DNA of 28,548 nt from a virus (taxonomy: Duplodnaviria; Heunggongvirae; Uroviricota; Caudoviricetes). Both the position numbers and the translations under genes were made by a program. The notes beneath the pieces were generated by a model. The model was not told where the DNA came from. It saw only the letters and a program-made list of their open reading frames with translations, and searched no databases. Location of the stretch: IMG/VR virus record IMGVR_UViG_2537562092_000003. One strand, given 5' to 3'. Below are positions 1 to 8,174 of the stretch, piece after piece; within the stretch, counting starts at the first letter, position 1, and each line of letters begins with the position of its first letter.

Positions 1-498
1 CATATTCTTTTCGGCGACATGCTCGGGGTAACCATCGGCGATATAATCCAGACGGTGATTATTGCCGGGCTGGTTACACTTGTTATTAGCGTAAAATGGC
101 GGGATTTTTTGCTGTTCAGCTTTGATTATCAACAGGCGCAGGTAAGCGGTTTGCATACGAGATGTCTGCATTATGGGCTGCTGTGCATGGTCTCTCTGAC
201 CATTGTGGCGACGCTGAAAGCGGTAGGTATCATTCTCTCCATTTCTCTGCTCATTGCGCCTGGCGCCATTGCGGTACTCCTGACACAACGCTTTCATATT
301 GCGCTCCTACTGGCGATTGGCATATCGGTAATAGTGTCAATGACTGGTGTCTGGTTGTCCTTTTTTATCGACAGTGCACCAGCTCCGACGATTGTCGTCT
401 TATTCGCGGTTGTGTTCATCATGACGTTCACCGTTACCAGCATCAACGCACGCACAAAGGGAAACACCCATACACAGGATTTGTCATCACCCAATTAG
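1..498 (+). CDS. sitD: Divalent-metal ABC transporter permease (ABC-3 family), C-terminal part; 5' end lies outside the window
   Basis: ORF 19-498 is open to the window edge. Polytopic hydrophobic sequence typical of ZnuB/MntB/SitD permeases, not identical to K-12 ZnuB as I recall it. Assignment to Sit is by family resemblance only. Confidence 0.5.
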   Translation, partial: HILFGDMLGVTIGDIIQTVIIAGLVTLVISVKWRDFLLFSFDYQQAQVSGLHTRCLHYGLLCMVSLTIVATLKAVGIILSISLLIAPGAIAVLLTQRFHIALLLAIGISVIVSMTGVWLSFFIDSAPAPTIVVLFAVVFIMTFTVTSINARTKGNTHTQDLSSPN

Positions 499-635
499 CA
501 CAACATCCGAGGGCAGCATCGTCCGCTGGCCCACAGAAGTCCGGAAAGTCATGGAAGGTCGTTGTTGGGAGGAGGTACAAATTCTCTCATGCAAAAAATA
601 CGTAAAATCGATAATAGCTGGAAATAATTCAATAC

Positions 636-697
636 ATGCACTCTCGAAAGTGCATCAGCCAACCGCAGAACGTTATTGCATACAACGTTTCTGCGGC
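636..697. repeat. Two adjacent hairpin-forming inverted repeats (7-bp stem 636-655; about 12-bp stem with one bulge 663-697)
   Basis: atgcact/agtgcat and ccgcagaacgtt/aacgtttctgcgg read directly; no flanking T-run on either strand, so not a classic intrinsic terminator. Confidence 0.5.
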
Positions 698-849
698 ATA
701 ATCCCAATGATTACTCCCTGACAGGGTTCGTAGGCCACTCAATATCAGGTGCAGTTGATGTATCAACACGGTTCAGCAGCATCCGATACTTTTTCCAGGC
801 TTCCAGCAACGGGGTTTCTTCCTCCGTTGCATATACAGCTCACCTTTTT

Positions 850-1149
850 TCACCCACGATTAACCAACAGCCAGACCAGCAGACACGCCACCACCGGCAC
901 AGCAAAATCCATCAGGCTTGCCACATCCCATGCACGTGTATCAAAACCGCCCCACCACGGCATATTCATTCGCTTGCCATGCCCGAACATTTCGATCCAG
1001 CGATATTCTGCCTGGGTGTGTTCACGCGCAATGAAGAACGTACAACCGGCTATCGCCCCGTAAGCCCAGTTCCCGGTAAAAAGACCAATCAGTAGCTGCG
1101 CAGCCACAGCACAAAGCGCATGAAGGAAAGGTGTTATATCCATTTTCAT
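850..1149 (-). CDS. Hypothetical small membrane protein
   Basis: ORF with two hydrophobic segments; ATG at 1147-1149 (track start 1158 is a TTG). No family recognised. Confidence 0.35.
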   Translation of the reverse strand: MKMDITPFLHALCAVAAQLLIGLFTGNWAYGAIAGCTFFIAREHTQAEYRWIEMFGHGKRMNMPWWGGFDTRAWDVASLMDFAVPVVACLLVWLLVNRG

Positions 1150-1156
1150 CCTACCC

Positions 1157-1180
1157 AATAAAACGGGGCGCTCGGCCCCT
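1157..1180 (-). terminator. Putative intrinsic terminator downstream of the 346-aa fibre gene
   Basis: Minus-strand hairpin GGGGC-cgagc-GCCCC followed by TTTTATT. Confidence 0.45.
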
Positions 1181-1185
1181 TAATA

Positions 1186-2226
1186 TTATTTAGACGCAAG
1201 CGCCGCCTCAATTACAGATAATCTTTGTCTTAATTCTGCGTTTTCTTCTTCCAGTGCTGTTATTCTGTCGTCTGACTCTCTGGCTACCTGAACAAGCAAG
1301 CCAGTAACACCAGAATAATCTACTGTGTAATAACGTTCACCTTCTTCACCTTCCGATCCGCTCGCACCGTCCTGATATTTCATTGCGGAACCTACAACTT
1401 CTGGGATTGCTTCCAGAGCTTCCTGTGCAATGACACCAGCATAGGGCATACCGTTTTCTTTAAGCGTGTATGTATAGCCGTTCATTTTACGGATGCGGTC
1501 GGTTGCATTATCGATCACCTGAATGTTGTCTTTCAGATCCCGGTCGGAATGCTGGTTAAATGCGGTGGCATGACATGCACCATTAACGCTTAACATATAG
1601 GTGTTATCGGTATTTTTCTGCGCATAGAACATATAAGCGCCACCATCAACACCGACTTCATAAACAACAGGACGGCTGGAATTTCCCCATAATAACGTCG
1701 ACACACCAGAATACGCCGTACCTTGCGTGTTTAGTGTCATGGTCGACCCGTGATTAGCATATTTGATCTGCAATGAGTCTGTATTATCAAACTTAATAAG
1801 CGCGTTACTTCCCCGCACACCATACGACATGAGACAGTTCCCCATCTTAAGGTAACCATCACTGCCTGGAAAAATTAAAGTTCCTCCGTAAAGATCACTA
1901 AAGTCCCAAAAGATACCTTTTGTCCCGTTATGTGTGACGATCCTCGTCATTGTATCTTTAGTACCATCAATATTTTTTCTGGTATATATGTCACTATAAG
2001 CGTTTTCCGTTTCACCAGTCTTATTTGACAAATGCAGCTTACCGCTGAATATAGTTCCAGTTGTTGGCAATGTTTTTTGATCATAGATTACATTGCAATA
2101 ACCATTCCATGTTGTTTTATTGTCTACATAAGATTTTGTTGCGTAGCTTCCTTGATCGTTTTTTAATTTGCTAACGTCGGATTTTAGCGTTTTGATGTCA
2201 TCAGGAATTACTGTCGATGTAGCCAT
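1186..2226 (-). CDS. Tail fibre/tailspike-like protein with C-terminal intramolecular chaperone (peptidase S74-like) domain
   Basis: C-terminus HSDRDLKDNI...GYTYTLKENG...GVIAQEALEAIPEVV...ITALEEENAELRQRLSVIEAAL matches the autoproteolytic chaperone domain motif of phage fibres/endosialidases (recall). Region looks AT-rich by eye. Confidence 0.6.
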   Translation of the reverse strand: MATSTVIPDDIKTLKSDVSKLKNDQGSYATKSYVDNKTTWNGYCNVIYDQKTLPTTGTIFSGKLHLSNKTGETENAYSDIYTRKNIDGTKDTMTRIVTHNGTKGIFWDFSDLYGGTLIFPGSDGYLKMGNCLMSYGVRGSNALIKFDNTDSLQIKYANHGSTMTLNTQGTAYSGVSTLLWGNSSRPVVYEVGVDGGAYMFYAQKNTDNTYMLSVNGACHATAFNQHSDRDLKDNIQVIDNATDRIRKMNGYTYTLKENGMPYAGVIAQEALEAIPEVVGSAMKYQDGASGSEGEEGERYYTVDYSGVTGLLVQVARESDDRITALEEENAELRQRLSVIEAALASK

Positions 2227-2235
2227 TTTTCTTCC

Positions 2236-2517
2236 TCACATCCAGCCACGAAGTTGATGCTCAACAGCAACCACGTATTCATCGAATAATGACGATATTT
2301 GCGAATCATTAATGATGCGCACGTTTACAAAATATCCGTCTTCCTTAACACATACCGGTTCGCCATCTTCAGTCAGTTCTCCGGTTTCTTTGTACACGTT
2401 ACCTATCACGTCGATAAGAATATCATCCTGCATCGACTCGTCATCATAATAGCCAATACTCTCCATAAAGGCCGAAAAGTCGGCCCTGTCTTCAAATTTG
2501 AGTGTTAAATCTTTCAT
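2236..2517 (-). CDS. Hypothetical acidic protein between the two fibre genes
   Basis: 93-aa ORF whose stop overlaps the next gene's start; no family recognised. Confidence 0.35.
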   Translation of the reverse strand: MKDLTLKFEDRADFSAFMESIGYYDDESMQDDILIDVIGNVYKETGELTEDGEPVCVKEDGYFVNVRIINDSQISSLFDEYVVAVEHQLRGWM

Positions 2518-4898
2518 TAGATTGACTCCCCCACCTGAGCATCAGTCAATGCCTTGTGCCATATTCTGAAATTCCTGACATGACCAAATAAATGACGTAA
2601 CCCGGCTGTAGTCTGGCCTCCAATACGGATAATTGCGGTGTTCTGAATACAGGACCATGTGGTTTTTGTTTCGCTGGATATATGCCCGTTACTTACTGAG
2701 CACGTAGACTGCTCTGACTTTACACGCATCCCCATAACCATTTTTTCAAGCGATGCGTTTTCGTTTACCCGTCTGTTAGCTCCTCCAATATCGCAATAAG
2801 GAAATCCGTCGTAATCTGTTGAACGACCGAAGCCAAGAATAATAGCCGCTCCGGTTTGATGACCGCCGGTATCAAAAACACGTGGCGCTGCATTTGGCGT
2901 TTTATACCAGTTCTTATGTACCTCACAAAGAACCGTAAAAGGAAGATTATAAAGATTATTCTTAATTGGAACTGTAACTATATCGCTTGCGCGGGTCGCC
3001 GCCGTCGCTCCTGATATAATAAAAGATGATACACAAGGCCCATCTTCTACTTGTGGGGTGGCCAGATAAATATAGTCACCAGATACGGTTGCCCCGCTCT
3101 GCTTAGGAGAATACTGTATCTGAGAGCCTATTTTTAACTCCCCATCAATTGCCTGAATTGTTGCCTCTGCAAAAATCCATCCGGTAGCTTCGTCCTTTCT
3201 GACTCTCGCTGTAATCCTTGAGGCAGCACCGCCTGTCATATTAATTTCAAGCGTTTGTGTATCAATATACGCATCACCAAGAAAAGTTGTTGCGCTACCG
3301 TCATATTTATCAAACCGGATACGCAACCTTACCTGCAGTTCTGTTTTAAAACGACATGAGGTTGTCACGTGTTTATTATCGCCTGAGACATCAACTGACT
3401 TTGTTGCAGCAATTGATGCCATATTAATGGCTGAGGTTTGCCCAATCAGAGAATCGTTGCAGACAAACTTTCCATAGGTAAAACCAAAATTATCCGTCCC
3501 TGTTTCGGGCACATCCATATTTGACGATCGCCCCCAACTGGCAGGGCTTTCCGAATTGAGCATGTAGTTTGTTCTTTGCCCCTCAATAAGCAGGCCATCA
3601 CGTTCAAATCGTGGCTCGTCAATGGCAGCCTCTGTCAGCACACCAGATTTGTTAATATAGGTTGCTTTCGATGCACGTTTAAACTTAACAATCTTGTCGC
3701 CAGGCATCGTTATTTCATCGTCACCAATAACAATTTTTTTATATGACGGCGAAAAGCCCGTAATCATATCCAGCGAATCGTTAAATGGTATCCACACATC
3801 AGGCAGCGGCTGTAAGACATATTTATACGGCTCCGCAGCCTGGCTTGCGTACTCTCTGGCTGCATCTTCGCTTGCTTTAGCTGCCGTCTGGCTTGCTGCC
3901 GATGCTTTCGCTGAGTTCGCAGCCGCTGTTTCGCTCACCTTTGCGTTGGTTTCACTGGTTTTTGCTGCTTTTTGACTGTTAGCTGATGCAGTGGCAGAAG
4001 CAGCCGCCGCGCTTGCAGAACTGGCTGCGGCACTCTCGCTTTGAGCCGCTGCATCCTGACTGCTTTTCGCCGCAGTTTCACTGGCTTTGGCATTCGTTTC
4101 GCTGGTCTTCGCTGCCGTCTGGCTGGACTTTGCGTTAGTTTCACTCGTCTTCGCAGCTTTCTGGCTGTTAGCCGCAGCAGTTGCTGATCCAGCTGCTGAA
4201 GTCGCAGAACCGGCTGCCGCGCTCTCGCTTTGGGCTGCTGCAACCTGGCTGTTTTTTGCCGCAGTTTCACTGGCTTTAGCATTCGTTTCGCTGGTTTTCG
4301 CTGCCGTCTGGCTGGACTTTGCGTTGGTTTCGCTCGTCTTTGCGGCTGTCTCACTGTTTTTCGCGTTGGTTTCTGATTTTTTGGCTGCTGTCGCGGAGTT
4401 TGCCGATGCAGTCTGTGAGGTCGCTGCCGCCTGTGCGCTGTTAGCTGCATTCGTTTCTGAGGTTTTCGCCGCGTTCTTCGATGATGCCGCTGCAGTTTCG
4501 GATTTCTTTGCCGCCGCTGCGCTCTGAGAGGCGGCTTCAGCGTTGCGTGCCGCTTCTTCCACCATTTCCTCAAAACGACGCAATGCCTCCGGCATGACAT
4601 CATCTTCCGTCATGGCACCGAGAAAATCATTCAGCGTACCTGGTCTGGAACCTTCATAGACGGTAATGGTCCCGGCATGTGAAGGCGGAAAACCTTCAAC
4701 CAGCAGGGTGACGCTGTACTGGCCATACTCAACATCCATGCTGTAACGCCCGGCTTCATCCGGATTTTCAGAGGCCACCGTGTTCACCAGTACCGTGGTG
4801 CTGTTACGCTTTGCCTTCAGTTGAATAGTGCAGTTCTGTATTGGTTTTCCCGCACCATCTTTCAGCACACCTGAGATTTTTACTGCTGCCATATCCAC
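2517..4898 (-). CDS. stfR: Side tail fibre protein (Stf-like); N-terminus lambda/Rac Stf-like, C-terminal receptor-binding part different
   Basis: N-terminus AVKISGVLKDGAGKPIQNCTIQLKAKRNST...GRYSMDVEYGQYSV matches lambda Stf as recalled; long (KTSETNAKxSETAAK)n repeat tract. True start may be the ATG at 4892. Confidence 0.75.
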   Translation of the reverse strand: MDMAAVKISGVLKDGAGKPIQNCTIQLKAKRNSTTVLVNTVASENPDEAGRYSMDVEYGQYSVTLLVEGFPPSHAGTITVYEGSRPGTLNDFLGAMTEDDVMPEALRRFEEMVEEAARNAEAASQSAAAAKKSETAAASSKNAAKTSETNAANSAQAAATSQTASANSATAAKKSETNAKNSETAAKTSETNAKSSQTAAKTSETNAKASETAAKNSQVAAAQSESAAAGSATSAAGSATAAANSQKAAKTSETNAKSSQTAAKTSETNAKASETAAKSSQDAAAQSESAAASSASAAAASATASANSQKAAKTSETNAKVSETAAANSAKASAASQTAAKASEDAAREYASQAAEPYKYVLQPLPDVWIPFNDSLDMITGFSPSYKKIVIGDDEITMPGDKIVKFKRASKATYINKSGVLTEAAIDEPRFERDGLLIEGQRTNYMLNSESPASWGRSSNMDVPETGTDNFGFTYGKFVCNDSLIGQTSAINMASIAATKSVDVSGDNKHVTTSCRFKTELQVRLRIRFDKYDGSATTFLGDAYIDTQTLEINMTGGAASRITARVRKDEATGWIFAEATIQAIDGELKIGSQIQYSPKQSGATVSGDYIYLATPQVEDGPCVSSFIISGATAATRASDIVTVPIKNNLYNLPFTVLCEVHKNWYKTPNAAPRVFDTGGHQTGAAIILGFGRSTDYDGFPYCDIGGANRRVNENASLEKMVMGMRVKSEQSTCSVSNGHISSETKTTWSCIQNTAIIRIGGQTTAGLRHLFGHVRNFRIWHKALTDAQVGESI
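3848..4553. repeat. Imperfect tandem DNA repeats inside stf encoding the Ala/Ser/Thr/Lys-rich repeat tract
   Basis: Near-identical blocks visible by eye, for example 4080-4150 versus 4260-4330. Confidence 0.7.
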
Positions 4899-4900
4899 TC

Positions 4901-4929
4901 CACAAAAAAGCCCGCCTGAACCGGCGGGC
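4901..4929 (-). terminator. Intrinsic terminator between lom and stf
   Basis: Minus-strand GCCCGCC-ggttca-GGCGGGC followed by TTTTTTGT, lying just upstream of the stf ribosome-binding site. Confidence 0.6.
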
Positions 4930-4956
4930 TGTCATAACACTGTGTTACCTGGCTAA

Positions 4957-5556
4957 TCAGAACTTATAACCGACACCCACGATGAAACCGTCAGTGCGCC
5001 AGTCACCACTGCCGGAGCCTTCATAAGCAATATCAATGGCCACGGATTCGGTCGGGTTAAACTGCACGCCAGCCCCCCACGCCAGAGACGTGTTGCTGTG
5101 GCGACCGTCATCACTTCCGGTCAGCACATCGTGCGTTTTCCCCTTGTTGTCAGTTACGCGGAGGTAATCCCCGGAAAAAGTCGAAACACGGCTGTAAGCC
5201 ATACCCGCCATCGCATACGCGCTGAACCATTCATTCACGCGCACAGACGGCCCCGCCATCACGCTGAACCAGCGGTTACGCACGGAATCTTTATGCCAGC
5301 GGGTATCGCTGTAACGGGTCAGCTGACGATTCTTGTATCCTGCATAACTGAATGACGTCACCAGCCCCAGCGTGTCCGTAAATTCATAACGGTATTTCAC
5401 GTTAATGCCCTTCAGGTCATCACTGCCTGGCATATCAGTATGGGTCTGAAGATACCCGGCGCTTAGTGTGGACTGATGCTCTGCTGCGCTCGCTGGCGTA
5501 CCAGCGGCAACCAGCCAGACTACTGCGGACAGAATAACAGCACATAATTTACGCAT
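4957..5556 (-). CDS. lom: Lom/Ail/PagC-family outer membrane protein
   Basis: Signal peptide followed by AEHQSTLSAGYL...NVKYRYEF and C-terminal GVGYKF, as in lambda Lom (recall). Intact here; K-12 lomR is IS-disrupted. Confidence 0.85.
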   Translation of the reverse strand: MRKLCAVILSAVVWLVAAGTPASAAEHQSTLSAGYLQTHTDMPGSDDLKGINVKYRYEFTDTLGLVTSFSYAGYKNRQLTRYSDTRWHKDSVRNRWFSVMAGPSVRVNEWFSAYAMAGMAYSRVSTFSGDYLRVTDNKGKTHDVLTGSDDGRHSNTSLAWGAGVQFNPTESVAIDIAYEGSGSGDWRTDGFIVGVGYKF

Positions 5557-5623
5557 AATTACCTCTCGCTTTTCTGCAATAAAAAAGGCACCATTTCTGG
5601 TGCCCGTATCTGGGTTATAAAAT

Positions 5624-6586
5624 TCAGCTAATCGTGATGCCTGTAGTGGCTTTCTTCATCACCACAACCAGCAAATCGCTGATACTTGCTGTGGGATACC
5701 AGCCATTTACCCACCATGCTGATACAGAAAACTCCAGTGTCATTACACCACTGCCTGCAGGCATATCAATAACACCCGTGTAAATCAGAGTATTATCCAG
5801 AGCCGTTCGGTTATAAATTTCAGCCCCGTTTTTCTTCACTATCAGGCGGCATGACGAATAAGTATCGCTATTCTCCCGCTCATGTCTGGCACCGCAGAAA
5901 GCCACCGCTGGAATAACAATTTGCCGGTCAAACGACTGATCGTCATAAACCCTGACGGTAATAGTCCCTGATGGCCACCGCTCCGGTGCACGGGAGTCCC
6001 GGGGGAAAGCTTTGCCCACTGTTTTAACGAGATCGCCTTCAATCTGGTTCGCGGACAGTTTTCCCAGAACCCGACAGTTCTCGTTAATCGTGACATTATT
6101 GAGCGTCCCGGAGTTCGCATTCACGTTACCGCTGATATCGGCATTTTTCGCCGTCAGCCGCCCGTCCGGTGTCAGGGAAAATACCGGAGGATTGCCGCCA
6201 CTGGTAATGGTGGGAGCCGTCAGATACTTCAGGAACACTTCGTTCATGAATATCTGGTTGCCCTGCGCCACAAACATCGGCGTTTCATTCCCGTTTGCCG
6301 GGTCAATAAACGCGATACGGTTAGCGGCAACCAGGAACTGGCTCAGTTTGCCTTCCTCCGTATCCTCCATACTAAGGCCAAGCCCCGCGACATAATGCCT
6401 GCCGTCTTCGGTCTGCTCAATTTTGACGCCCCACATGGCATTCCATTTATCGTTGGCGTCCTTCCACTCTTTCGAAAACTCCTCCAGTTTGCTGGCGTTA
6501 TCCTCCGTCAGCTCGACTTTTTCCAGCAGCTCCTTGCCGAGATGGGATTCGGTTAACGTAGGTTCCGGAATCCAGATACAGCTCGG
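5624..6586 (-). pseudogene. C-terminal fragment of host-specificity protein J (central tail fibre); N-terminal majority of the gene absent
   Basis: ORF 5624-6436 resembles the lambda gpJ C-terminus as recalled ([24 protein letters not shown]...). The same frame stays open upstream to a stop at 6587-6589, so this is an internal piece of a longer gene. Confidence 0.7.
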
Positions 6587-7274
6587 TCATTCCGCCGCTG
6601 TTTTTCTGCGTCTGTTTCTGCCCTAACTGGACAGCACCGATCGTCATAAACAATTCACCACAGCGACCGAGATTCGTGTACGTATTCACATCCTCGTTAA
6701 TGCGCCCCATGAATGAGAACGGTCGATCAACCGAACAGATAAAGCTGTTCATTGCCTTGCGTTTCACCCACGAAGCATGGCCGCCATTGTCACCAAGAAA
6801 ATCCCCGCCCTGCGACATAGCGATGGAAAGAACAGGTATTGATTCGTAGTACGCCAGCATTTCAGAAAGGATCGCATCCAGTTTCCTTATCGGAAAATAG
6901 GCCTGGTCATAGTTGCGATCCACCCGAAACTGGAACTCGTGATAATCATCATCGAGCTGAATGAAGTATTTACACCCGACCAGTTTTGCCAGGTCGAAAC
7001 AGGCATTACGGGCGTAAAAAATTGAGCGGCGGTCACCAAAATTATCGGCTTCGTCAAAACGACTGGCGATATCGGCTTTGGAAAATACCAGCACCTGTTC
7101 ACCAAATTCAGCCATGTACTGATGCCGTGTCTTATCTTCATCATCAACAACGATAAAAATTTTCCCGGTATAGCCAGCACGACGCAACGTCCGGTAAGTC
7201 AGAACTTTTTCCGGTCGCCCGTGAGTCAGAATAAAGGCGCAAAAATCATCACGCATATTCCTCCTCCCCGCCAT
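6498..7274 (-). CDS. Hypothetical protein with GT-A-like acidic motifs, apparently truncated; its 3' end reads out of frame into the J fragment
   Basis: Strand-acidic motifs IFIVVDDED and YFIQLDDDY resemble the DxD motif of nucleotide-sugar transferases (weak, by eye). The last 30 or so codons (6498-6586) overlap J-homologous DNA in another frame. Confidence 0.4.
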
Positions 7275-8037
7275 GCATGATCTCCACCATGCGCTGCGTC
7301 ATTCGGACAAATCCATTTTCAATAGCCTGCTGATAATCAATGATCACCAGCGCCGACTCCTCGAAAAGGCACTGAATTTCAGCGGGGGCATGAGCGTAAT
7401 AGTCCGCAATTCTGCTGAAATTAAACACCGTGTGACGTTCTGCCGCACACAGGAGGAATTTCTCAATATCAGGATCAAGGGACGCCGAACGTATCCGGCT
7501 GATCAGCTCCTGAGTTTTCGTATCGTCGTACAGTTCACTGATATCCGGTTTACCGCCCGACGGCTCATAAACAGGCGTATCAATTTTCGTCGTATACGGC
7601 TCCTCCTTATTTCCTGTACCGGGCAAAACATCCGTCAACAGTTCATCAATTTCTGTCGGGCCGAAGCCTGTCAGGGAGACATCAAAATCAGCATTGATTA
7701 GGACCGACAGCTCCATCCGCAACAGATCTTCATCCCAGCCAGCATTCATCGGTAGGCGATTATCTGCCAAGCGGTACGCCTTTTTCTGCTCATCCGTCAG
7801 GCCAGACAGAACAATGACCGGAACAGAATCCATTTTGAGCATTTCAGCCGCCATAACACGACCGTGACCCGCAATAATTTCGCCCTTTTCGTCAATCAGC
7901 ACCGGATTAGTCCAGCCGAATTGCTTAATACTTTCTACCAGTTGTGCCACCTGCTCAGTACTGTGCGTCCTGGCGTTGTGCGCATACGGTGACAATTCTT
8001 GTAATGGGCGATAGACTATCTTTAATTTCTCGCTCAT
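7249..8037 (-). CDS. ParB-like nuclease domain protein
   Basis: N-terminus ...PYAHNARTHS...GWTNPVLIDEKGEIIAGHGR is the ParB/sulfiredoxin-fold signature. Probably the intact form of the gene left as a remnant in K-12 Rac. Confidence 0.7.
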   Translation of the reverse strand: MSEKLKIVYRPLQELSPYAHNARTHSTEQVAQLVESIKQFGWTNPVLIDEKGEIIAGHGRVMAAEMLKMDSVPVIVLSGLTDEQKKAYRLADNRLPMNAGWDEDLLRMELSVLINADFDVSLTGFGPTEIDELLTDVLPGTGNKEEPYTTKIDTPVYEPSGGKPDISELYDDTKTQELISRIRSASLDPDIEKFLLCAAERHTVFNFSRIADYYAHAPAEIQCLFEESALVIIDYQQAIENGFVRMTQRMVEIMHGGEEEYA

Positions 8038-8174
8038 ACAGCCTTGCTTTATGAATAAAACGCACCCCAGCAGCCAGTGCTACTGGGGGCGGAGGTGTTG
8101 CTGGTAAAGTTAGGTATTGGATCAATGAGTGAGTCAATATAATATTAAACTCACAATTATAAATCAGCCATATA

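Follow-up and report, generated by a model that had tools for sequence, protein, structure and literature searches.

Two-protein lateral tail fibres have been noted for small siphoviruses generally (PMC8594841). In the DT57C/DT571-2 LtfA/LtfB and phiEco32 gp14/gp15 pairs, both proteins carry an S74 chaperone domain and the second is joined via a short conserved N-terminal segment; for LtfB, genetics shows that LtfA is required as its attachment site (PMC4728585; PMC10713586). The T5-like phage IrisVonRoten (Bas32) has been interpreted by the authors of the BASEL collection along similar lines, Gp22 being a proximal fibre from whose C-terminus a galectin-like domain protrudes and Gp24 an attached, chaperone-bearing distal fibre; Gp23 is not discussed. 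A further point of reference is the side fibre locus of lambda (Stf/Tfa) and of the K-12 Rac prophage (StfR/TfaR). Here we compare with these systems a fibre locus found in a 28,548-nt stretch of tailed-phage DNA (IMG/VR record IMGVR_UViG_2537562092_000003), the whole of which we call the window. The locus, at 1186-4898, consists of three intact genes packed on the minus strand, namely stf (side tail fibre), o93 (a 93-aa acidic protein) and o346 (a short fibre of 346 aa); every gene or gene part located below between 661 and 7256 lies on this same strand.

Our reading, to which we would give a probability of about 80%, is that the locus forms the right end of a Rac-family lambdoid prophage whose intact fibre genes were left by one recent 19.2-kb deletion, and that the module works in complete phages. 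The module itself is a known kind of two-protein lateral fibre and not a new system. The genes for IrisVonRoten Gp22, Gp23 and Gp24 have the order and spacing of stf, o93 and o346. Gp22 is 52% identical to Stf residues 133-793, lectin-like C-terminal region included, o93 shares 39% identity with the 92-aa Gp23 (E=1e-24), and Gp24 begins with the adaptor MVTKTVIPTDITKLKN (motif MVTKTVIPTDITKLK, as in o346) and ends in an S74 domain. There are differences as well. The anchor of the IrisVonRoten fibre is T5-type (LtfC-dependent), whereas that of Stf is a lambda collar; Gp24 is a T-shaped protein of 574 aa with two binding domains, as opposed to a predicted mature part of 226 residues for o346; and IrisVonRoten is a virulent, complete phage, while the locus described here sits in a defective prophage. 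K-12 whose O16 antigen has been restored is a host for IrisVonRoten, and in the view put forward by the BASEL authors the O16 glycan may be the primary receptor of its lateral fibres; by analogy, and indirectly, fibres of the present type may likewise handle O-antigen. The resemblance to DT57C is one of design: LtfA, unlike Stf here, has an S74 end, and descriptions of that phage mention no o93-like gene; a tblastn search of phage records with the o346 adaptor returned no T5-like matches of the DT57C type, the two adaptor sequences being not detectably related.

The genes are arranged as a tightly coupled unit. The ATG of o93 overlaps the stop codon of stf as TAATG at 2517, and a spacer of 9 nt separates the o93 stop from the ATG of o346, which is preceded by AGGAAG. 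None of the three reading frames is disrupted, stf, o93 and o346 each giving a full-length, end-to-end PHROG match (phrog_1419, phrog_1361 and phrog_4563). As in lambda-type side fibre loci, stf stands downstream of J and lom, the order here being 'J, lom, stf, and it shares with lambda Stf and Rac StfR the PF08400 collar and a repeat shaft extending to residue ~346. Where lambda then has the distal half of Stf and the Tfa (Caudo_TAP) chaperone, this locus has instead a lectin-like domain, o93 and an S74 fibre, so that by its distal half the locus is not of the lambda type. What is left of tfa lies further on, at 661-831 (50.8% GC), where a 3' remnant of a lambda-type tfa and lambda-like downstream sequence mark the right-hand boundary of the replaced cassette; over 173 nt it agrees at 90% with the 3' end of lambda tfa and what lies beyond, and in the RefSeq annotation of the identical sequence it contains the 120-bp pseudogene 'tail fiber assembly protein, missing N-terminus' (711-830). 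Base composition follows the same boundaries. The N-terminal part of stf has 54.6% GC and the membrane-protein gene downstream of o346 53.4%, as against 44.6% for the C-terminal part of stf, 41.5% for o93 and 41.7% for o346, giving an AT-rich block at 1186-3860 with 41-45% GC between flanks of 53-55%. The C-terminus of stf, o93 and o346 are a compositionally foreign cassette set between a lambda-like stf 5' end and a tfa 3' remnant.

Stf can be divided into three parts. The open reading frame (2517-4898) encodes 793 aa from a GTG codon or 791 aa from the ATG at 4892 chosen by RefSeq, and the latter, with GGAG 6 nt upstream, is probably the true start. Residues 1-134 (4497-4898) make up the N-terminal collar domain: residues 5-134 match PF08400 ('Prophage tail fibre N-terminal', E=7e-67), and the collar domain of Ur-lambda Stf, whose structure is solved (9E7M), aligns to residues 5-97 with ~90% identity (E=7.5e-49). 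Residues 135-346 (3861-4496) form a lambda-type, repeat-rich proximal shaft with a tandem repeat at 3939-4358 (period 189 nt, 2.2 copies, 83% matches), the counterpart of the proximal coiled coil that spans residues 102-393 in Ur-lambda (PMC12617516). Similarity to lambda orf-401 (58% identity) extends only to residue ~346. The remaining 447 residues (347-793; 2517-3860) are a foreign, putative receptor-binding region, and BLASTP of the cassette proteins against lambda orf-314 and Tfa gives no matches.

Within this foreign region, residues 437-637 (window 2988-3590) match the 'phage head spike fiber' domain NF048003 (E=3.3e-13, 50.5 bits against a cut-off of 36), and a family profile matches Rcc01080 (GhsB), the head spike fibre of the gene transfer agent RcGTA (E=2.6e-6). 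Rcc01080 binds capsular polysaccharide (PMC7296036). It is a single-copy head decoration, anchored by an Ile/Leu-Gly repeat, and the part matching Stf is unresolved in the solved structure, so that neither fold nor ligand site can be compared. The extreme C-terminus of Stf gives a weak match to Laminin_G_3 (E=0.006, under the Pfam threshold). When homologues are compared, their differing N-terminal anchors all converge at Stf residue ~360-374, close to the point at which the proximal coiled coil and hinge meet in Ur-lambda (PMC12617516). An AlphaFold2 model of residues 347-793, built from a shallow alignment (77-98% identity), reaches a mean pLDDT of 41.5 and was judged unusable. The region is widespread, occurring in 217 phage records by tblastn, including T5-like, rV5-like, Dhillonvirus, Drexlerviridae and lambdoid phages, and in E. 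coli prophages it is also found fused to P2-type fibre N-termini.

The third gene, o346 (346 aa; 1186-2226), encodes a short fibre with three parts. Residues 1-35 (2122-2226), which start MATSTVIPDDIKTLKSDVSKLKND, are a conserved N-terminal adaptor and proposed docking peptide with the consensus M-x-T-x-T-V-I-P-x-D-I-x-x-L-K, found ~10 nt after o93; residues 36-226 (1549-2121) are the body and tip of the short distal fibre; and residues 227-346 (1186-1548) comprise a Peptidase_S74 chaperone domain and C-terminal helix. The assignment of the last part comes from PF13884, which matches residues 227-278 (E=6.3e-14, 52.4 bits against a cut-off of 22, profile positions 1-57 of 58). A Ser-Lys dyad at the start of the S74 domain is known from the K1F endosialidase. 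In o346 the motif SDRDLK begins at residue 227 (S227-D-R-D-L-K232) and places Ser and Lys five apart at the domain start; the pair is invariant in the homologues from Tritos and ESCO3 and aligns with the SDRRIK of phage S16 gp37, to whose chaperone-bearing end (6f45) the o346 S74 end aligns with E=1.2e-3. The K1F endosialidase, T5 pb1 and S16 gp37 all show a C-terminal S74 domain with a Ser-x4-Lys dyad and a following helix, as does o346. In those proteins the domain terminates a long fibre or spike, whereas o346 is very short and separately encoded, and cleavage at Ser227, which would leave residues 1-226 as the mature fibre, is predicted from this motif. Residues 87-337 match the C-terminal tips of the long tail-fibre families phrog_5668 and phrog_6578. 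Comparison with Tritos and ESCO3 shows residues 1-35 to be invariant, 36-115 variable and 116-346 conserved; megablast identity to Tritos-type phages breaks at window ~2121, inside o346. As a separate observation, a lambda-type Stf that runs directly into the chaperone domain (annotation 'prophage tail fiber N-terminal domain and S74 family...') is present in some E. coli prophages and represents a one-gene alternative to the split design.

Between the two fibres stands o93 (2236-2517), an acidic protein (pI 4.05; 22 Asp+Glu and 7 Lys+Arg) which we regard as the partner of the Stf C-terminal domain. It belongs to phrog_1361 (E=2.5e-46), annotated as function unknown; Pfam and NCBIfam profile scans are empty, and the family profile finds nothing below E=0.01 among PDB sequences. 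AlphaFold2 predicts a confident fold (pLDDT 86.8) with no informative structural resemblance. An exhaustive HMMER search of 1.84 billion representatives yields 51 clusters, all of unnamed members; fusions to fibre proteins were sought among them and none was found, the members being small and stand-alone bar two spurious repeat matches. Homologues of o93 occur in 181 phage records by tblastn, and in all seven records appearing in both this list and that for the Stf C-terminal region, the two genes are adjacent. In phage 21, stf and an o92 gene are followed by the membrane-protein gene, a distal fibre being absent. Among 14 ORFs upstream of the o93-like gene in remote environmental phages, eight are recognised by the Stf C-terminal HMM (E 1e-44 to 6e-6) and adjoin that gene, with no adaptor-type fibre downstream; a scan of viral contigs with the remote o93 relative P0278 found nothing. 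Because o93 co-occurs with the domain even where an adaptor-bearing fibre is missing, we take the stable pair to be the Stf-type domain and o93, a pairing that we lean toward explaining by o93 being a cognate chaperone or tip subunit.

The whole module is carried by phages of several kinds. At the DNA level, the plaque-forming lambdoid isolates Tritos, 2G7b, HannyBb and PhiR63_1 match the window at 98-99% through stf, o93 and codons 1-35 of o346, and the virulent Nonagvirus vB_EcoS_ESCO3 matches it at 89-92% through o346, o93 and the 3' part of stf. Every coliphage or E. coli-prophage fibre gene with this C-terminal domain that was inspected is accompanied by a 92-93-aa ORF overlapping its stop codon, with a second fibre ~10 nt on in most; the overlap recurs in ESCO3, the Seuratvirus VogelGryff, which has the same gene order, a P2-like prophage (locus L007) and tinuso (locus L009). 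The second fibres are alike only in their first 25-35 residues, and their bodies are unrelated. In the P2-like prophage the second fibre is a gp34/gp37-type protein of 303 aa followed by a Caudo_TAP chaperone gene, in tinuso it has 224 aa, and the adaptor is recognisable in both, as it is in IrisVonRoten Gp24. Among IMG/VR loci, the adaptor starts the ORF downstream of o93 in 78 of 78, with differing bodies (346-aa type or 234-aa short S74 type). A tblastn search at E <= 0.01 places the adaptor in 16 phage records; the gene neighbourhood was seen in eight of them (seven lambdoid or Nonagvirus isolates and swan01), and all eight carry the module, while JenP1 and PhiR49_1 are among the other eight. 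Since the Stf domain and o93 are the sole common partner of adaptor fibres across otherwise unrelated tails, we infer that these fibres dock there.

Two side observations concern the same module. In BL21(DE3) (NC_012892 1584694-1586957), a trio annotated 'head spike fiber domain protein, hypothetical protein, tail fiber domain protein' has ~88% identity. Coliphage-type fibre modules are also found in MG065692, MG065635, MG065652 and MG065654 ('Campylobacter phage C11/C12/C13/C15'), with C13 showing the Stf C-terminal domain at 88% amino-acid identity and an adjacent o93 homologue; as the genomes are of a size usual for T5-like and rV5-like coliphages, these records are probably mislabelled, or the phages were grown on a different host.

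A reading made from the sequence alone had described this region as a mosaic tail-fibre locus in a prophage without a tail, and the comparisons above and below bear it out on most counts: the lambda/Rac-type N-terminus and repeat tract of Stf, its divergent C-terminus (put at 400 or so residues), the acidic 93-aa ORF, the self-cleaving chaperone domain of the 346-aa protein, and the AT-rich distal genes are all as stated, with match statistics far beyond chance, and the reading frames, whose disruption would have told against that reading, are intact. Its suggestion of recent exchange of receptor-binding modules agrees well with the near-identity to lambdoid phages, the drop inside o346 and the 89-92% identity shared with the Nonagvirus, and its guess of a LamG-like domain finds a weak counterpart in the Laminin_G_3 match and a stronger relative in NF048003. 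The claim that no Tfa-type gene follows stf holds for the genes immediately downstream and has to be amended for the tfa 3' remnant beyond them.

The Ur-lambda tail carries four trimeric fibres, whose twelve Stf N-termini make up a collar where the tail tube meets the distal tail protein (PMC12617516). A complete phage with the present module would presumably do likewise, Stf trimerising and its collar clamping that same junction. The lambda-type coiled-coil shaft would end at the position of the lambda hinge, and from residue ~360 the foreign lectin-like domain, of the RcGTA head-spike-fibre type with a LamG-like end, would probably bind surface polysaccharide. Translationally coupled to stf, o93 would be the cognate partner of the Stf C-terminal domain, acting as assembly chaperone or small structural connector. 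The second short fibre, o346, would dock with its first ~35 residues onto the end of Stf or onto o93, while its S74 domain would fold the trimer and then cut itself off at Ser227 to leave a mature fibre of ~226 residues. Each side fibre may in this way combine lectin-like ends with a self-processed second fibre, and so present two glycan or surface specificities. In the present host, which has no tail on which to mount them, the fibre genes would be inert cargo, maybe still open to recombination with incoming lambdoid phages.

The absence of a tail is evident from closely related genomes. Window 1-8100, the part compared, is 100% identical to E. coli strain 13TMH22, where RefSeq gives the gene order sitABCD, 'tfa, membrane gene, o346, o93, stf, lom, 'J, truncated hypothetical, ynaK, trkG, lysis, tRNAs, replication/immunity, recET, intR. 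That annotation contains the Rac gene set (intR, xisR, recET, ralR, kilR, sieB, the ydaS/T/V region, trkG and ynaK), and from intR to sitD it has no terminase, capsid, tube or tape-measure genes. The missing functions are found in the prophage of Ecol_316 (locus L002). Window 1-6555 is 99.985% identical to L002 20001-26555, where the counterpart runs on into a full J, tail assembly, tape measure, tube, capsid, portal, terminase and a glycosyltransferase-like gene; the window resumes inside this last gene, window 6553-7000 corresponding to L002 45788-46235. The cognate tail, with its tube and distal tail protein ring, is thus encoded not by this element but within the 19.2-kb interval present in Ecol_316. 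The deletion joins the 5' part of the glycosyltransferase-like gene (6556-7256; TET-associated, PF20691 TAGT E=1.3e-34; phrog_842; RefSeq pseudogene 'missing C-terminus') to the C-terminal ~310 codons of J (5624-6555; PF09327 and PF12421 on a 270-aa ORF; RefSeq pseudogene 'missing N-terminus'), the latter collinear with the full-length gpJ of Ecol_316. The lost stretch begins in the glycosyltransferase-like gene, takes in terminase, capsid, tail tube and tape measure, and includes the first ~820 codons of J. The breakpoints share only the trinucleotide TTA (6553-6555), a 3-bp microhomology, and 19,232 bp are absent relative to the intact relative, from which we conclude that a single illegitimate deletion took place. 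A 258-aa ORF at 6498-7274 was considered as a gene and rejected, being the truncated glycosyltransferase-like gene read across the junction into out-of-frame J.

The event appears to be recent. Of 5,426 complete E. coli genomes, only 11 have the junction, as opposed to 281 with the three-gene module, and ~18 further genomes have an identical fibre locus adjoining sitD together with an intact J, the one inspected being a complete prophage. Among the 11 deletion carriers, an IS3 element lies within o346 in strain 2-1 and, independently, within stf in isolate 2014-01-7375, so that at least two are hit; by its match pattern, OY754392 may have the same insertion as strain 2-1. In eight of the 11, stf, o93 and o346 are all intact. 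What preserved the fibre genes was their position beyond the reach of the deletion and its recency, rather than any need for them; spared in this way, they are already decaying, and selection is not required to explain their presence. The sequence-only reading had called the locus 'retained', and its implication of selection is not supported, recency being the simplest account of one deletion in so few genomes whose left flank hardly differs from that of a complete prophage. A Rac prophage that has fibre genes but no tail is a textbook situation in E. coli K-12, where the tail was lost via different deletions.

Expression of these genes in the lysogen would be expected to be low. Late-operon expression in lambdoid phages needs antitermination, and a terminator-like GC-rich hairpin with a T-run (4909-4930; 8-bp stem, 7 GC pairs by consensus scan) lies between lom (4957-5556; Ail/Lom outer-membrane protein, PF06316 E=6e-122) and stf, as does an annotated terminator in the corresponding position just upstream of stf in phage 21; taking the hairpin and the antitermination requirement together, we expect little or no transcription from stf to o346.

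Some observations weigh against our reading or temper it. The right flank of the junction (6553-7323) is ~98.8% identical to Ecol_316 as compared with 99.985% on the left, so that Ecol_316 is a close relative of the parent prophage and not the parent, which is itself mosaic relative to Ecol_316. The eight intact ORF sets may be compatible with weak selection. Docking of o346 on Stf or o93 is proposed from gene order and the shared adaptor, structure prediction having covered monomers, and no fusion protein joins o93 to either fibre. The lectin-like fold of the Stf C-terminus is suggested solely by sequence profiles, of which Laminin_G_3 is sub-threshold. Finally, co-variation of o93 type with adaptor type was discounted as evidence of direct contact, the genes being 10 nt apart.

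The earlier suggestion that the genes could serve as a reservoir for superinfecting phages, here widened to superinfecting or co-resident lambdoid phages that take up the fibre genes by homologous recombination or the proteins by phenotypic mixing and so change host range, seems to us plausible as biology and rather unlikely as the explanation of this locus. The flanks do offer homology to lambda (84% over 545 nt at the stf 5' end, 90% over 173 nt at the tfa 3' remnant), the window still encodes recE and recT, and the Stf collar, being ~90% identical to that of Ur-lambda, should fit lambda-like tails; there is also a direct precedent, in that lambda captured markers in Rac stfR at ~2e-6 per lysogen-forming phage, mostly via Red-beta (PMC3945230). 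The same could be said, however, of any prophage remnant. The reservoir is an established concept and not specific to this locus, such a consequence is not evidence of upkeep for that purpose, the IS3 disruptions in sister genomes indicate no strong constraint, and in-trans use would require late-gene expression from a defective element with a terminator-like hairpin ahead of stf. We consider far less probable, to the point of near dismissal, the accompanying proposal that the fibre proteins have been co-opted, for example for adhesion, to which use by the bacterium in binding surface glycans may be added. The three ORFs are indeed intact in the window and in most deletion carriers, and their neighbours lom and sitABCD are prophage genes of benefit to the host. 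Yet neither Stf nor o346 shows a signal peptide or an apparent means of secretion, the sequence is all but identical to that of the complete prophage and so shows no lineage-specific adaptation, at least two independent IS3 knock-outs have occurred among 11 genomes, PADLOC run on four proteins returned no defence-system matches, and the operon sits behind the terminator-like hairpin, dependent on late antitermination in lambdoid phages.

A different kind of alternative leaves the deletion in place and disputes the architecture: o346 would be an independent short fibre or spike attached elsewhere on the tail, and o93 a mere chaperone for Stf. In keeping with this, phage 21 and the remote environmental phages keep the Stf domain and o93 without an adaptor fibre, and neither a fusion nor a structure links o346 to Stf. 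We nonetheless find it quite improbable, as adaptor fibres always directly follow the Stf-domain/o93 pair in lambdoid phages, Queuovirinae, T5-like siphoviruses and a P2-like myovirus, all eight of the 16 adaptor records with known neighbourhood carry the module, and docking of one fibre onto another by a short conserved N-terminus has precedents in DT57C LtfB and phiEco32 gp15 (PMC4728585). We therefore prefer the reading of a two-protein fibre spared by a recent deletion, with o93 leaning toward a chaperone or tip partner that perhaps also forms a socket.

This last possibility can be taken further, albeit tentatively. Between the P2-like prophage and the window, identity is ~95% for the Stf C-terminus, yet only 50% for the o92 protein and 37% for the adaptor, a pattern implying that o93 and the distal fibre can move as one unit. 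Joint movement may suit a connector, and physical linkage explains it equally well. A more speculative idea, which we hold to be possible but somewhat less probable than its opposite, is that o93 and the ~30-residue adaptor constitute a portable socket and plug by which unrelated distal fibres dock on a lectin-ended proximal fibre, o93 being a structural connector rather than a folding chaperone. Were this so, the same device would dock 346-aa S74, 234-aa S74, Tfa-dependent gp37 and T-shaped dual-domain fibres, would work across lambdoid, Queuovirinae, T5-like, rV5-like and P2-like phages, and would offer a ready-made handle for engineering phage host range.

For this particular genome the locus is of little import, being a recent, decaying remnant of a common prophage. 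More general is the observation that one three-gene fibre design, at DNA identities of 92% or less, is common to temperate and virulent coliphages of very different tail types. The interest of the locus, a modest one, lies mainly in the uncharacterised o93 family and the portable adaptor: deciding between chaperone and connector would aid prediction of host range from sequence, and knowing the role of o93 would aid the design of chimeric side fibres for lambda-based delivery vectors.

Several neighbouring genes deserve brief mention. Downstream of o346, and separated from it by a bidirectional GC hairpin (1165-1179), is a gene for a 97-aa predicted membrane protein (850-1143; phrog_1443 E=3e-58), which is 99% identical to Tritos TRITO_22 and 95% to phage 21 CPT_21_24 (annotated with a signal sequence and 2 TMDs). 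It is always found downstream of the fibre genes, and it may have a role in lysogenic conversion or exclusion. The fibre end of the prophage is immediately followed by sitABCD, an iron/manganese transporter operon (window 1-498 and upstream in 13TMH22). Phage 21 (1-2985 of the compared locus) has sitABCD in the same position after its side fibre genes, with sitD 97.5% identical, and on account of this shared position the sit operon looks like phage-borne cargo and not core chromosome. A literature search on phage 21, sitABCD and the side tail fibre, and on phages from ECOR prophages, turned up nothing specific.

At the other end, intact relatives (Ecol_316 L002 45559-46555) have the PF20691 glycosyltransferase-like gene ('GREB1-related' in some) and a gene with a ParB/Srx N-terminal domain upstream of terminase; in the window the ParB/Srx-type gene (7249-8037) stands beside the truncated glycosyltransferase-like gene, and the pairing hints at a DNA-modification module. 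The gene ynaK is a RefSeq pseudogene in 13TMH22, yet its ORF in the window has the full 262 aa and matches phrog_620 end to end. Further along, the 13TMH22 annotation places trkG (as in K-12 Rac), tRNA-Gly and tRNA-Thr, and a QueH-like epoxyqueuosine reductase beside a DUF1971 gene at window 8175-9632, 11723-11876 and 15478-16146.

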